Shown here: positions 15,354 through 20,496 of the stretch, one piece after another | Layout of the letters: every line of letters begins with the position of its first letter | Numbering within the stretch: the stretch's first letter is position 1 | Assembly: GCA_963723515.1 (NCBI GenBank) | Contig: CAVRQT010000003.1 | Coordinates: forward strand, 160,001-224,000 | DNA: 64,000 nucleotides | Direction: 5' to 3' | Source: Vulcanimicrobiota bacterium | GTDB taxonomy: Bacteria > Vulcanimicrobiota > Vulcanimicrobiia > Vulcanimicrobiales > Vulcanimicrobiaceae | Notes under the pieces: model-generated | Databases searched by the model: none | What the model saw: only the letters and a program-made list of their open reading frames with translations | Told to the model about the DNA's origin: nothing | Position numbers and translations under genes: made by a program

Positions 15354-15983
15354 ATGCAGAGCAAGGCGACAAACGGCCGCACGCGGATGCGCAAACACCT
15401 CTACAACGTCGGCGCGCTCTTCCGCGGATTTGCAACGGTCTTCAGCTTCATGTTCATGCGCAAGCCGACGATCGGCTATCCGAGCATCAAGAAGCAGCAT
15501 GCGCCCCGATTTCATGGGCTTCACGAACTGCGCCGTTACGCGGACGGCAAAGAGCGATGCATCGGTTGTGAGCTCTGCGCGATTGCCTGCCCCGCCAATG
15601 CGATCACCGTTATCGGCGCCGAGAATCGGCCTGACGATCGCCGTTCACCCGGCGAGCGGTATGCAGCGCGCTATGAGATCGATGAGTTGCGCTGCATCTT
15701 CTGCGGCATGTGCGAAGAGGCGTGTCCGACCGACGCGATCGTGCTCACGCCGCGCTTTGAGATGTCCGATTACCGGCGCGGTTCGTTCATTTACGCGAAA
15801 GACCGGTTGCTCGTACCGCCGCAAGCCGGCGTCGGAACGTCGCCCGACGAGCGTCCCGGCGGGATCCCGGCGGATCTCGGAGAGGTCGCCGAAATCAAAT
15901 CAACCGTCGATATCGAGCGCGGCTACGATGCAACCTATCGCGGTCAGATCCTCAAGACGCAGCGCCGGGGCTTAGCGGATTGA
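15354..15983 (+). CDS. nuoI: NADH-quinone oxidoreductase subunit I
   Basis: Two CxxCxxCxxxCP motifs (CIGCELCAIACP, CIFCGMCEEACP). Confidence 0.95.
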   Translation: MQSKATNGRTRMRKHLYNVGALFRGFATVFSFMFMRKPTIGYPSIKKQHAPRFHGLHELRRYADGKERCIGCELCAIACPANAITVIGAENRPDDRRSPGERYAARYEIDELRCIFCGMCEEACPTDAIVLTPRFEMSDYRRGSFIYAKDRLLVPPQAGVGTSPDERPGGIPADLGEVAEIKSTVDIERGYDATYRGQILKTQRRGLAD

Positions 15984-16588
15984 CGCTCTTTTGGATCCTC
16001 GGCATCTTGCTCGTCGCAAGTGCCGTCTTTGTGATCAGCCAGCGCAAGCCGGTATACAGCGTCGTTGGGCTGCTCGTACACTTTGCCGTGCTGGCTGTTT
16101 TCTATCTCACGCTGAATGCGGAATTTCTCGCGGTCATTCAAATCGTGATCTATTCCGGTGCGATTCTGATTCTGTTCGTCTTCGTGATCGCGCTGCTTTC
16201 GAGCGGCGTTTCGGCATTTTCCGTCGGGCCGAACCGCATGCCGAAAGCTGCCGTTCCGGCAGGCGTGCTCGCCTTCGTTGCACTCGCCTTCGTCGTCTAT
16301 GGGATCTTGCGCATGCCGCTCGTCGCCGCCGGCGCGCGTGCCGTGACAACCTCGATTCCGGGAGCCGTCGGCGCGCCGAATGTCTTCGGCAGCGTTGCAG
16401 ATTTCGGACGAGCGCTCTTCACGACGCATTTGCTGCCTTTTGAGATCACGGCTTTCATTCTGATGGTGGCCGTCATCGGCGTCGTCGCTCTCGCCGGTGA
16501 GCAAACGCCGTTCGTCCCATCGTTGCGGCGCGCCCGTGCGGTCGAACGTGAGATGCGCGAAGCGCTCTTGCGCGGCGGCGAGCAGTGA
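15980..16588 (+). CDS. nuoJ: NADH-quinone oxidoreductase subunit J
   Basis: LNAEFLAVIQIVIYSGAI, LLPFEI. Confidence 0.93.
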   Translation: MTLFWILGILLVASAVFVISQRKPVYSVVGLLVHFAVLAVFYLTLNAEFLAVIQIVIYSGAILILFVFVIALLSSGVSAFSVGPNRMPKAAVPAGVLAFVALAFVVYGILRMPLVAAGARAVTTSIPGAVGAPNVFGSVADFGRALFTTHLLPFEITAFILMVAVIGVVALAGEQTPFVPSLRRARAVEREMREALLRGGEQ

Positions 16589-16905
16589 ACGAAGCGGCGC
16601 TGCCGGTCGCGATCGTCAACTACATCGCGCTTTCGGCGGTCATTCTGTTCATTGGCGCGGCAGGCGTCATGCTGCGACGCAACCCGCTGATCATGCTGAT
16701 GTCGATCGAACTGATGTGGAATGCCGCAAACCTGCTCTTCCTCGCCTTCGCGCGCGCATGGCTCAACAACGCCGGACACATCTTCGCGTTCATCGTCATT
16801 ACGGTCGCCGCGGCGGAGGCCGCGATCGGCTTGGCGATTGTGGTCGTCGTCTTTCGATCGTCGCGCACGGTTGACGTCGACGAAGTGACGAGCTTGAGGG
16901 GTTGA
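16585..16905 (+). CDS. nuoK: NADH-quinone oxidoreductase subunit K
   Basis: LMSIELM, VAAAEAAIGLAI. Confidence 0.95.
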   Translation: MNEAALPVAIVNYIALSAVILFIGAAGVMLRRNPLIMLMSIELMWNAANLLFLAFARAWLNNAGHIFAFIVITVAAAEAAIGLAIVVVVFRSSRTVDVDEVTSLRG

Positions 16906-17106
16906 TGCATCAGATACGCCCTGTCACGCTGAGCCTGTCGAAGCGCCACCGTTATCGCGGCATTAAAGTAGCGCCTTTAGACGTGATCCAGGATAGGCTA
17001 GCCAGATTTGCACGACCCTTCGATGCTTCGACACTTCGACATGCTCAGTGCAGGCTGCCGCTCAGCACAGGCGTTCTCAGGGTGACACACCGCTGATGCA
17101 TCAGAT
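16903..17106. mobile_element. 191-bp non-autonomous REPIN/MITE-like insertion with 13-bp target-site duplication and nested palindromic repeats
   Basis: TGATGCATCAGAT at 16903-16915 and 17094-17106; inverted repeat units at 16921-16945 and 17016-17087. Confidence 0.8.
16905..17096 (+). other. 63-codon bridging mini-ORF created by the insertion (MHQIRPVTLSLSK...)
   Basis: Its ATG overlaps the nuoK TGA and its TGA overlaps the nuoL ATG; open across the whole insertion; translation unproven. Confidence 0.5.
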
Positions 17107-19087
17107 TGGCGTTGCCGGAACCTATCCGCTGCTGTATTTGATTTGGCTCTTGCCGCTCGCCGGTGCGATTGTGTGCTGGGCGTTTGGCCCGCAGCTGCGC
17201 ACGCTGGCCGGTTCGCTCGGCAGTGCGGCAATCGGCGCTGCGTTTCTTGCGACGATTCTCTCCTGGGGGAGCGCGATGCAGCGCAGCGGCGGACTGCTCG
17301 GCGCACATCAGCATATCGGCTCCTGGTTCCGCGGCTTCGATTTCGGGCTGCTGCTCGATCCGCTCTCGCTCATTTGGGCGCTAATCATCACGGGCGTCGG
17401 GTTCGTCATTCACCTCTACTCGATCGGCTATATGAGCGGCGATCGTGCGTACGCGCGCTTCTTCGGTTACATGAATTTCTTCGTCTTCGCGATGCTGACG
17501 CTCGTGCTCGCGGACAACTTTGTGCTTTTGCTCGTCGGCTGGGGCCTCGTTGGTTTGGCTTCGTACTTCTTGATCGGATTCTGGTTCGAACGGCCGACGG
17601 CCGTCGCCGCGGCGCGCAAGGCGTTCGTCATCAATGTTGTCGGCGATGTCGCCATGCTCTTCGCAATCTTCATTATCTTTGCAAAGGTGGGCTCGATTTC
17701 GTATGCCGACGTCTTTGCAAATCCAACAGTGCTTGGATCGTCATTATTGCTCGTTTGCATCTGCCTCTTCATCGGCGCGGCGGCGAAATCGGCGCAAGTA
17801 CCGCTGCACACATGGTTGCCCGACGCGATGGAGGGTCCGACGCCGGTTTCCGCATTGATTCACGCGGCGACGATGGTCACCGCCGGCGTCTATCTCGTCG
17901 CCCGGTGCTGGCCGCTTTGGAATGCCTCACATGATGCGCAGACGATTGCCGGCACGATCGGCGCATTGACGGCGCTGATCGGGGCGGTTCTCGGAACGTC
18001 CCAGTGGGATATCAAGCGAATTTTGGCCTATTCGACGATGTCGCAGATCGGCTACATGATCATGGGCGTCGGCGTCGGTGCATATGAAGGCGGCGTCGCA
18101 CATTTCTTTACGCACGCATTTTTCAAGGCGCAGCTTTTCTTGGCGGCGGGGCTCGTCATTCACGCGCTTGCAAACGAGCAAGACGTGCGATTGATGGGCG
18201 GTTTACGCAAACGCATGCCGCTGGCGTTCTGGGCCATGGTGGTCGGCGTCTTGGCGATCTGCGGCGTTCCGGGACTCTCGGGCTTTTTCAGCAAGGACGC
18301 GGTCATCTTCGGAGCGCTCGAGCACGGCCATCCGTGGCTCTATGCGATCGGCATCGTTACCGCGGGCATCACGGCATACTACATGTTCCGGATGCTCTTT
18401 CTGACGTTTTTCGGCGAGTATCGGGGCGAGATGAGGCCGGACGAACTCGGCATTCCGTCCGAGGAAGCGCAAGCGATTACCGCCCTTCGAGAGCCTCAGG
18501 ACGCACATGAGCCGGCGCACGAAGAAGAACATGCGCCGGCGTGGGTGATGAACGCGCCGGTTGCGGTGCTCATCATCCCGTCAATCATTGCGGGCTGGCT
18601 GCTCGTCGGCGGCGAGAGCTCGCCGTGGCACCGGTTCTTCGCGGGGCAATTTCAAACCGTGACCGGCCCGACACCGGTCAGCGAGCTCGTGACGTCGCTG
18701 CTCGTGCTGCTTTTCGTTTTGGCCGGCGTCGCGGTCGCCTATCTGCGTTATGCTGCTGCGCCGGCACTGGCCAACGCGCCGGCGCGCTTGCAACGCGAAT
18801 CGCTTCGCATGCCGGCCGCACTCACGCAGCTGCTGTATTTTGATACCGCGATCGATATACTGTTCGTCAAACCGGCCATCGGTTTAGGGGTGATCTTCGG
18901 CCGTGCATTCGATCCGCACGTTATCGACGGCGCGGTGCGTGAGGCGGTAATTTCCGCCCGCTGGCTCGGGCATCTCTTTCGTAGCTTTCAAACGGGACTC
19001 GTTCGTGCGTACGCAGTGATCATGATCTTCGGCGCGGCATGCTTCATCGCGTATTATGCCTTTGCACGCGGGCTCGTGATGCGCTGA
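17096..19087 (+). CDS. nuoL: NADH-quinone oxidoreductase subunit L
   Basis: KSAQVPLHTWLPDAMEGPTPVSALIHAATMV, HFFTHAFFKA. Confidence 0.96.
   Translation: MHQIGVAGTYPLLYLIWLLPLAGAIVCWAFGPQLRTLAGSLGSAAIGAAFLATILSWGSAMQRSGGLLGAHQHIGSWFRGFDFGLLLDPLSLIWALIITGVGFVIHLYSIGYMSGDRAYARFFGYMNFFVFAMLTLVLADNFVLLLVGWGLVGLASYFLIGFWFERPTAVAAARKAFVINVVGDVAMLFAIFIIFAKVGSISYADVFANPTVLGSSLLLVCICLFIGAAAKSAQVPLHTWLPDAMEGPTPVSALIHAATMVTAGVYLVARCWPLWNASHDAQTIAGTIGALTALIGAVLGTSQWDIKRILAYSTMSQIGYMIMGVGVGAYEGGVAHFFTHAFFKAQLFLAAGLVIHALANEQDVRLMGGLRKRMPLAFWAMVVGVLAICGVPGLSGFFSKDAVIFGALEHGHPWLYAIGIVTAGITAYYMFRMLFLTFFGEYRGEMRPDELGIPSEEAQAITALREPQDAHEPAHEEEHAPAWVMNAPVAVLIIPSIIAGWLLVGGESSPWHRFFAGQFQTVTGPTPVSELVTSLLVLLFVLAGVAVAYLRYAAAPALANAPARLQRESLRMPAALTQLLYFDTAIDILFVKPAIGLGVIFGRAFDPHVIDGAVREAVISARWLGHLFRSFQTGLVRAYAVIMIFGAACFIAYYAFARGLVMR
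18481..18504 (+). repeat. Degenerate palindromic micro-element inside nuoL
   Basis: CGCCCTTCGAGAGCCTCAGGACGC fits the CCTTCGA-N4-CTCAGG pattern. Confidence 0.55.
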
Positions 19088-20496
19088 TGGTTATCTCGCT
19101 CGTCCTTCTGCCGCTCGTCGCCGGCTTTGCGCTGTTCTTGCTGCCGCGCGAAGACCGCAGAGTCAGCAAAGCGACCGGCTGCATCATTGCAGCGGCGACG
19201 TTCGTCTTGGCGCTGGCGAGCAGCGATCGAACGCAGACCGCGCGCTGGCTCTCGCGTCCATTTACGGCGGCCTTCCATTTTTCGAACGACGGCATCGGGC
19301 ACTGGATCGTGTTGTTGCTCGCCTTGGCGACGTTTTGCGCGATTCTGGCGACGACCGTGCCGCGAATGCGCAGCTTTATCGCGCTGCTGCTGCTGCTCGA
19401 GGGCACGATGATGGGCGTCTTTTTGGCGCGCGATCTGCTGCTCTTTGCGCTCTTCTGGGATGCAATGCTGATGCCGGTCTTCCTGGCACTGATTGGCTGG
19501 GGAGAACATCCCGCGACGGCGTGGCGCTATTTGATCTACAACTTTGCCGGCGGCCTGACGCTGCTCTTGGCGACCGCTGCTTACGGCGTGATCGCCGGCT
19601 CGACGGACGTCATCGGCAAGACGAACGTGGCGCACATCGGCTACGTGTGGGCGGCGTGGATCCTCGCTGGATTCGCATTTGCATTCTTGGTAAAGACGCC
19701 GGTGTGGCCGTTTCACACGTGGATGCCCGCAACGTACGCCGACACGCCGGCGCCGATGATCGCCGTCGTGAGTGGCGTGCAGTCGAAAGCCGGACTGTAC
19801 GGCTTCATCGTCGTGGGGCTTGCGCTGCTGCCTGAATCGATGCGCGCGGCCACGATTGCGATGTTTTGGCTGGGGTTGATCTCACTGCTGTACGGCGCGT
19901 TGATCGCGCTCGTGCAAACCGACGGCAAACGCATCGTCGCCTATTCGTCGCTATCGCATCTTGGCTTGATCTTGCTGGCGATCTTCAGTTTCAATGCCCT
20001 TGCCTTGCGCGGTGCATTGATCTACATCATCGCGCACGGCCTCTTCAGCGCTGCCCTCTTCCTGATTCTCGGCTATGTTGAGGAACGTGAGGAGACGCGC
20101 TCGCTCCTGCGGCTCGGCGGACTGGGCCGGCGCAATCCGCGTTTGGCGGGCGCGTTCGTGATCGCCGCGCTTGCGGCGCTCGGTTTGCCGGGACTCGCCG
20201 GATTCGCGGGCGAGCTCGTCATTTTGACCGGCCTCTTTGCAGCGGGCAATTTCTGGGTCGCCCTGATCGCGTTGATTCCGATCATCATCGCCTCGGCGTA
20301 CATGCTGCGGCTCTTCCAAGAGATGATGAATGGGCCCGAGGTGGCCGACGTGCCGGTGCGCGCAGACCTGAGTTGGATTGAAGGTCTTGCTGTTGCGCCG
20401 CTGCTCTTAGCGATCGTTTTAATCGGCGTTGATCCGCACGCACTGACGACATTCGATACGGCGCCGTACGCGGCGAGCGTGGCGGTTCAGCAATGA
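19087..20496 (+). CDS. nuoM: NADH-quinone oxidoreductase subunit M
   Basis: VKTPVWPFHTWMP, KRIVAYSSLSHLG, GLPGLAGFAGE. Confidence 0.95.
   Translation: MVISLVLLPLVAGFALFLLPREDRRVSKATGCIIAAATFVLALASSDRTQTARWLSRPFTAAFHFSNDGIGHWIVLLLALATFCAILATTVPRMRSFIALLLLLEGTMMGVFLARDLLLFALFWDAMLMPVFLALIGWGEHPATAWRYLIYNFAGGLTLLLATAAYGVIAGSTDVIGKTNVAHIGYVWAAWILAGFAFAFLVKTPVWPFHTWMPATYADTPAPMIAVVSGVQSKAGLYGFIVVGLALLPESMRAATIAMFWLGLISLLYGALIALVQTDGKRIVAYSSLSHLGLILLAIFSFNALALRGALIYIIAHGLFSAALFLILGYVEEREETRSLLRLGGLGRRNPRLAGAFVIAALAALGLPGLAGFAGELVILTGLFAAGNFWVALIALIPIIIASAYMLRLFQEMMNGPEVADVPVRADLSWIEGLAVAPLLLAIVLIGVDPHALTTFDTAPYAASVAVQQ

Follow-up and report, generated by a model that had tools for sequence, protein, structure and literature searches.

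The nuoK-nuoL junction of an uncultured soil bacterium of the Vulcanimicrobiota (genome G000) very probably received an insertion of a repeat that recurs elsewhere in this genome, together with a 13-nt duplication of the overlap between the two complex I genes. The open reading frame (ORF) crossing the insert overlaps the nuoK stop at one end and the nuoL start at the other, and comparison with related junctions suggests that this mini-ORF probably acts as a ribosome relay from nuoK to nuoL. The stretch analysed, hereafter the window, comprises 64,000 nt (G000:C3:160001-224000) of a genome of 2,114,483 bases in four contigs, 88% complete and with about 60% G+C. G-codes denote genomes (G000 is the source genome and G001 a same-genus relative) and C-codes the contigs of G000; positions given without a code are those of the window.

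Insertion and duplication between nuoK and nuoL

The 13-mer TGATGCATCAGAT occurs twice on the forward strand, at 16903-16915, where it holds the nuoK stop and the mini-ORF start, and at 17094-17106, where it holds the mini-ORF stop and the nuoL start. A motif search of the window returned these two matches against 0.08 expected (1 of 100 shuffles reached two), and they are the sole two copies in the 2,114,483-base genome. Between them lie 178 nt (16916-17093, or equivalently any one 191-nt period) that are absent from G001, whose nuoK is 95% identical. There, the nuoL GTG overlaps the nuoK TGA (gGTGAcccaccaacta...) without an insert, and removing one 191-nt period from the G000 junction leaves a TGATG overlap that aligns to the G001 junction without gaps. 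An earlier reading of the letters alone (the sequence-only reading) had described the two 13-mers flanking extra DNA, the overlap restored by removal of one period and the inverted units of the insert, all of which were confirmed; the empty site that it proposed to seek in close relatives was found in G001. With this site empty and 126 of 148 related junctions short, the short junction is the rule and the G000 insertion is derived.

Other genomic copies resemble the insert over 16916-16964 and 17013-17089, a similarity that abuts the left 13-mer and stops 4 nt short of the right one. The left module (16916-16964, forward) consists of a GTCACG stem, a 15-nt core, CTGAGCCTGTCGAAG, at 16929-16943, and then CGCCACCGTTATCG, and up to 58 other genomic copies align to it. 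The right module (17013-17089) is inverted, with the core CTTCGACATGCTCAG at 17034-17048, GCAGGCTG..GCTCAG units and a terminal CTCAGGGTGACA at 17076-17087; up to 20 other copies align, the best being C3:291431-291505 (87%) and C2:476392-476464 (85%). The central filler of about 48 nt (16965-17012) has no second copy in the genome, and a 66-nt probe of the insert centre (16955-17020) found no match in the 120 other genomes of the family that were searched. The outer inverted units, TGTCACGCTGAG (16922-16933) and CTCAGGGTGACA, are complementary over 12 nt (92%, 11/12); the inner pair formed by the two cores is stronger, with 93% complementarity over 15 nt.

A flanking direct repeat above chance was seen at only one of 50 islands of at least 50 nt, namely the nuo insert itself with its 13 nt; the next-best flanking repeats measure 7 nt, the same as random controls. 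Duplication is consequently not a habit of this repeat family. Of the long target-site duplication proposed in the sequence-only reading, the exact duplication flanking the insert stands, while its being a habit of the element does not, and the search it suggested for similar repeats with such duplications found 49 of the 50 islands at chance level. The 13-mer contains a 10-nt palindrome, TGATGCATCA, so that its two copies also form an 11-nt perfect inverted repeat, which the direct reading exceeds by only two bases. A staggered cut at this palindromic target would be the simplest account of the duplication.

The surrounding genes form a complex I operon: a Pfam search of the window identified subunits J, K, L and M in this order on one strand. 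nuoJ (15980-16585, PF00499) is followed by nuoK (16585-16905, TGA at 16903-16905), an ORF of 106 aa that matches PF00420 (Oxidored_q2, E = 3.4e-25). nuoL (17096-19087) is an ORF of 663 aa from ATG 17096 that matches PF00361 (E = 7.4e-82) and PF00662, and its N-terminus, MHQIGV, matches the MHH.MGV of relatives in an alignment; nuoM (19039-20493) matches PF00361. All four lie on the forward strand.

Bridging frames at related junctions

From ATG 16905, 63 stop-free codons lead to the TGA at 17094-17096, which overlaps the nuoL ATG at 17096. This mini-ORF (16905-17096, forward) thus shares a TGATG with the nuoK stop and another with the nuoL start, and its peptide begins MHQIRPVTLSLSK; both the frame and the peptide are as the sequence-only reading gave them. 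The sole well-spaced Shine-Dalgarno (SD) motif of the region precedes the mini-ORF: GAGGGG in the final nuoK codons (16896-16901), the GAGG of which ends 5 nt before ATG 16905. No GGAG, GAGG or AGGA was found 4-10 nt before the nuoL ATG at 17096, where an AGGG stands at 13 nt, nor before GTG 17048. The latter is an alternative nuoL start inside the insert; the nuoL frame stays open upstream as far as this GTG (17048-17095), which would add 16 residues (MQAAAQHRRSQGDTPL), likewise without an SD motif.

A promoter and terminator scan detected no promoter-like or terminator-like site inside the insert. The predicted RNA fold of the insert region pairs the two 13-mers over 12 bp, enclosing the insert; it is no better than that of shuffles (z = -0.60), whereas the DNA fold is (z = -3.26). 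The suggestion that the hairpin tunes the stability of the nuoLMN mRNA therefore found no backing, given this RNA fold and the lack of a terminator-like site in the insert. A doubly coupled bridge was found at none of the other 57 islands of at least 25 nt in G000 (58 islands scanned with an approximate ORF and GC3 rule).

We surveyed 148 nuoK-nuoL junctions, of which 28 were the usable ones among 30 first loci (two were cut by contig ends) and 120 came from the best-listed nuoK matches; 143 belong to the family of G000, four to a sister family and one to another family of the class. Junctions were chosen by nuoK similarity, independently of the insert feature. The survey covers the best-listed part of the nuoK matches, with 192 further matches outside it, and leaves out, among the listed ones, the unpublished G240, G230, G234 and G242 as well as G221, G051, G125, G259, G145, G117, G077 and G132. 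The unpublished G243, G206, G207 and G020 are short junctions and affect that count only; relay and long-insert cases are all published.

Extrapolated gaps between nuoK and nuoL were zero or negative in 36 of the 148 junctions, 1-29 nt in 90, 30-99 nt in 3 and at least 100 nt in 19, and the DNA of the 19 long inserts is of three or more unrelated kinds. When junctions were flagged automatically for spacers of at least 30 nt, 23 were selected; two of them proved on inspection not to be inserts, leaving 21. In G012 the nuoK end is frameshifted and a real TGATG is present; here (L048) the 3' end of nuoK leaves the aligned frame after residue 90 and a normal ...GGTTGATG junction comes next, possibly reflecting a frameshift or an assembly error. 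In G018 (L046) nuoL starts at a TGATG overlap with a longer N-terminus (MPPYVGSGWAAVHH...).

Relays, defined as ORFs starting from -15 to +6 of the nuoK stop and stopping on the nuoL start, were found in 12 of the 21 junctions, spread over 8 genera and lying on unrelated inserts. They measure 14 codons in G175, 41 in G216, 63 in G000, 64 in G162 and G177, 65 in G112 and G166, 73 in G224, 79 in G209, 94 in G013, 121 in G173 and 141 in G212. In all 12, the stop codon and the nuoL start share 1 or 4 nt. Their peptides are unrelated to each other, and inspection by eye shows that G139 and G166 use different frames to read the conserved centre of homologous inserts; as far as sequence comparison goes, both observations favour a relay over a protein.

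Three nulls were used to assess how often such bridges would arise by chance. With the ends fixed, the interior dinucleotide-shuffled and the frame randomised, 2.13 relays were expected among the 23 flagged junctions against the 12 observed (P = 3e-10), and collapsing the five genomes of genus g48 to a non-relay member left 9 of 19 against 1.21 expected. Because inserts are stop-poor on both strands, a second null was added in which the real inserts were flipped and/or shortened by 1-2 nt, giving 13 variants each. For inserts of at least 100 nt, it yielded 11 relays in 19 against 1.46 expected (2.53 with pseudo-counts; P = 1.7e-6), or 8 in 15 against 1.53 with genus g48 collapsed to a non-relay member (P = 2e-5). 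Reverse-strand frames are unsuited as a clean null, palindromic inserts reading alike on both strands. The third null, taken within G000, considered 192 frames at 32 further islands of the repeat family, 11 of which stay open for 190 nt.

A corollary of relaying is that unbridged inserts carry their own SD motif before nuoL. The motifs present agree with this weakly: 7 of 8 inserts lacking a bridge have something SD-like 4-10 nt upstream of nuoL, compared with 4 of 11 bridged ones (one-sided Fisher P = 0.037).

Another kind of insert, unrelated to that of G000 and about 190-500 nt long, fills the junction in several genera (L090:20-207 in G177, L154:27-206 in G162, and L161, L167, L168-L170, L088, L094 and L096). 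It has a conserved centre (a CTTTTTCG...CGAAAAAG hairpin and GCCATCCTGGC) between long arms, which vary by genome yet stay complementary (44 nt, 98% in G177; 29 nt, 100% in G162). The left arm takes in the last nuoK codons and the stop, so that the right arm is an inverted copy of the end of the gene. The 280-nt insert of G013 (L033:1810-2093) opens with a degenerate unit, GTCGCGTCGAGCTTGTCGGGAC, similar to the core of the G000 family, its remainder being unrelated, and is bridged by a 94-codon ORF (ATGA ... TGATG). A search of 15 relatives' junction loci against Rfam found nothing near threshold, and Rfam offers no family for the insert with the complementary arms; a single plant-miRNA match of 27.9 bits, where 297 are needed, is due to chance.

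Relay translation and alternative explanations

The following scenario would account for the G000 junction. After the split from the same-genus relative, the 178-nt composite of two inverted hairpin units and about 48 nt of filler would have entered the palindromic overlap TGATGCATCAGAT, and a 13-nt target duplication would have left the stop/start overlap and the first nuoL codons present twice. What used to be the nuoL start, together with its SD motif within nuoK, would now open the 63-codon frame, which is stop-free and in phase by chance or selection and closes at the second TGATG. Ribosomes that come from nuoK or bind at this SD motif would translate through the insert, melt the long-range stem formed by the paired palindromic 13-mers, and reach the nuoL ATG, where they would terminate and start anew; nuoL, with nuoM and nuoN, would stay coupled to nuoK across 190 nt. 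Translation of the mini-ORF and the dependence of nuoL on it are our inference, and the peptide as such most likely carries no meaning. A search for RNA runs containing the locus returned none. Portions of PMC10666635 report that stop/start overlaps are enriched among subunits of heteromeric complexes, and that in reporter work termination-reinitiation drops 40-80% at +14 nt and is nearly abolished by +38 nt. Since a spacer of about 20-38 nt nearly abolishes reinitiation, an untranslated gap of 190 nt should uncouple nuoL, and a frame ending on TGATG would restore the coupling. The passage of ribosomes from nuoK through the mini-ORF to nuoL, already put forward in the sequence-only reading, gains comparative support from the 11 bridged inserts among 19 (1.5-2.5 expected) and from the SD motif before the mini-ORF, while the passage as such is deduced.

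The insert may instead be merely tolerated, nuoL being initiated independently from ATG 17096 through the weak and distant AGGG, or from the in-frame GTG 17048, and the open frame having arisen by chance from a palindromic element that is GC-rich and poor in stops, with duplicated ends. We regard this as unlikely, although it is the strongest of the competitors, and several observations weigh on its side and against a relay. No bridge was found in 8 of the 19 long inserts (G118, G139, G227, G226, G005, G062, G065 and G006), where nuoL is intact, so complex I tolerates an uncoupled nuoL in relatives. Inserts are stop-poor on both strands, with 16 of 57 forward and 12 of 57 reverse frames open (P = 0.26); their openness is thus partly intrinsic to palindromic elements, and the shuffle null overstates significance. 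Inserts flipped at the same length still relay in 5 of 19 cases. In G000 alone, 3.7% of frame-randomised dinucleotide shuffles and none of the 13 orientation or frame variants of the real insert give a relay, hence the chance probability of an open in-phase frame is a few percent, which is not negligible. The genomes are related as well, which makes the tests overstate their independence, and few inserts enter the SD comparison. Against mere tolerance, neither candidate nuoL start has an SD-like motif 4-10 nt upstream, whereas 7 of 8 unbridged relatives have one; the bridged fraction exceeds that of the real-insert variants; and the predicted fold pairs the nuoL start with the left 13-mer.

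If the frame were maintained for another purpose, translation of the insert might mainly cover the mRNA, against Rho-dependent polarity or hairpin formation, rather than serve reinitiation at nuoL. Polarity classically acts on untranslated, structured RNA within operons, such as these 190 nt would be, and in G139 an ORF starting from the nuoK stop spans, by eye, about 85% of the insert and ends some 30 nt before a nuoL with its own SD motif. Coverage alone would not require, however, the overlap of 1 or 4 nt with the nuoL start seen in 12 of 12 full relays, and bridged inserts tend to lack an SD motif; this role appears improbable. A functional small protein acquired with the element is disfavoured and has very little probability in our judgement. 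The mini-ORF does have a start, an SD motif and 63 codons, but its peptide belongs to no Pfam family, matches only itself among 5.8 billion proteins and is mostly read-through of repeat units (VTLSLSK, LRHAQ); it is unrelated to the relay peptides found in relatives, which are unrelated among themselves too, and the differing frames of the homologous centres in G139 and G166 point the same way. Similarly slight is the chance that the 191-nt period is an assembly artefact, although repeats can break or confuse assemblies. Coverage speaks for caution here and against the insertion: no read or contig bridges the whole insert in small shares of three soil-metagenome runs from one study, in which 16933-17012 and 17056-17300, including the right junction, are uncovered. 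An independent short-read contig spans 16795-16929 with 1 mismatch and contains nuoK, the left 13-mer and 14 nt of the insert; it shows the left junction only and possibly comes from the same sample as the assembly. The insert nonetheless lies within a 1.08-Mb contig, inserts of the same kind occur at this junction in relatives, and a collapsed or borrowed copy is excluded by the uniqueness of the insert centre in the genome.

The repeat family and its relation to known elements

Pieces of the insert recur in G000, with 98 matches. The core CTGAGCTTGTCGAAG (15 nt) is found at 183 sites with at most 2 mismatches, and the terminal motif GTCAYNYTGAG about 213 times (152 on contig C3, against 8 in one shuffle). 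Copies form 145 islands, arranged as inverted pairs 34-37 nt apart, tandem runs or arrays of up to 910 nt. The bases flanking the core covary, being Watson-Crick pairs at 154 of the 183 sites against about 79 when partners are reshuffled (G-C 56, C-G 52 and A-T 46 of 183; e.g., C3:278784-278847 and C3:16081-16141). On the strength of these covarying bases before and after the core, the unit is a stem-loop with a conserved loop, an architecture that suggests that a protein recognises it.

Searched against Rfam, the insert gave RF02901 (AaHKsRNA41) as best match, at 13.2 bits against a gathering threshold of 97; the consensus stems of RF02901 contain the same repeat core. The literature searched held no printed name for the family: neither 15-mer nor LSLSKG matched, and matches to the 12-mer were primer-like chance strings in unrelated work. 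At least 125 loci contain an exact copy of a 21-nt motif, GTCAYNCTGAGCTTGTCGAAG, and the phyla named in the titles of the matches listed are Bacteroidota, Eremiobacterota/Vulcanimicrobiota, Nitrospirota, Verrucomicrobiota, Patescibacteria, Acidobacteriota, Proteobacteria and others, a sharing between many phyla at the nucleotide level.

Two large arrays deserve mention. A sub-variant of the repeat forms the 910-nt array at G000:C3:373394-374303, outside the window, with CTGAGTTTATCGAAG units about 59 nt apart. In G006, which belongs to another genus, a 1.1-kb array of the CTGAGCTTGTCGAAG family fills the nuoK-nuoL junction (L037:1816-2952), with 9 cores in forward and 10 in inverted orientation; an 8-nt direct repeat, TGACTGCG, that starts at the nuoK TGA flanks the array, and nuoL has its own GGAG 7 nt upstream. 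This is the sole other junction surveyed that the family of the G000 insert has colonised.

Repetitive extragenic palindromic (REP) sequences, bacterial interspersed mosaic elements (BIMEs) and REP doublets forming hairpins (REPINs) are mobilised by REP-associated tyrosine transposases (RAYTs). Like them, the G000 repeats are short imperfect palindromes in hundreds of copies, mostly intergenic and present as singlets, inverted doublets or clusters, with a 15-nt core closed by a covarying base pair. However, a search covering the Y1 family of transposases (Y1_Tnp, PF01797, RAYT) found no match in the 88%-complete genome, whereas 6 of 14 control genomes matched. As no Y1/RAYT gene, which defines REPINs, was found in G000, the REPIN/BIME label attached to the insert in the sequence-only reading fails. 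REPINs are not known to duplicate their target on insertion; the nuo copy has its 13 nt and the other 49 islands have none above chance. Miniature inverted-repeat transposable elements (MITEs) are small, non-coding and bounded by terminal inverted repeats. The G000 insert resembles them in being small and non-coding, in its terminal inverted repeats (12 nt, 11/12) and in its flanking direct duplication, but 13 nt is long for a target duplication, no duplication of fixed length was found (49 of 50 islands of at least 50 nt lacking one above chance), the repeat is internally modular and variable, and no parent insertion sequence was identified in the Y1-limited search.

Other systems resemble the junction in what is translated. 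Rickettsia palindromic elements are translated inside host genes, as in-frame parts of the host protein. The G000 insert is likewise palindromic selfish DNA that persists among essential genes by staying translatable, but its ORF stands by itself between two genes. Relay cistrons that serve for translation only are also used in synthetic bicistronic designs. Parts of bioRxiv 10.1101/2020.12.30.424838 describe comEB before comEC of B. subtilis as such a cistron. In both cases the product of the upstream ORF is dispensable and its translation is needed for expression of the next gene; unlike the G000 mini-ORF, neither was created by insertion of a mobile repeat.

The closest parallel is found in mycobacteria, in which mycobacterial interspersed repetitive units (MIRUs) are tandem minisatellite units of about 46-101 bp. 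According to the review PMC12548453, these repeats are mobile and enter at start codons, where their internal ORF is coupled to the gene by a -4 overlap; with reference to Supply et al. 1997, the review considers it likely that this coupling keeps any influence of the insertion on expression to a minimum. By this account, both systems place repeats at gene junctions or start codons within operons, with an ORF coupled to the neighbouring gene. The G000 insert likewise lies between co-oriented operon genes and has an ORF overlapping both neighbours (TGATG at 16903-16907 and 17094-17098). It differs in belonging to an uncultured soil bacterium rather than a mycobacterium and in being a single composite of two inverted hairpin units and unique filler; a repeat search (TRF not run) found no tandem unit of MIRU size in 16850-17150, where direct repeats measure 9-18 nt. 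Its repeat family appears to be distinct, with a 21-nt motif spread over many phyla, and its coupling was rebuilt by the 13-nt target duplication rather than brought by the element. The relay principle is thus already in print for MIRUs, and what sets G000 apart is its lineage, its repeat family, its single composite architecture and a coupling rebuilt by duplication.

It is quite possible, if somewhat less likely than not, that DNA landing in coupled operon junctions of membrane complexes survives, as a general rule, through bridging by a doubly coupled relay ORF, and that the repeat represents an unnamed, cross-phylum stem-loop family for which no known mobilising enzyme was found in G000. 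Complex I subunits are needed in fixed proportions, and selfish DNA that breaks a coupled junction would either be read through as a throw-away relay ORF or persist where the downstream gene gains its own ribosome-binding site. The MIRU principle would then extend beyond mycobacteria, to an uncultured soil lineage and other repeat families, and with a quantitative comparative test. For annotators, 'hypothetical proteins' of this kind between operon genes are probably relay frames and not proteins. If this rule is true, the nuoK-nuoL junction of the G000 family is a natural replicate experiment in which it could be measured.

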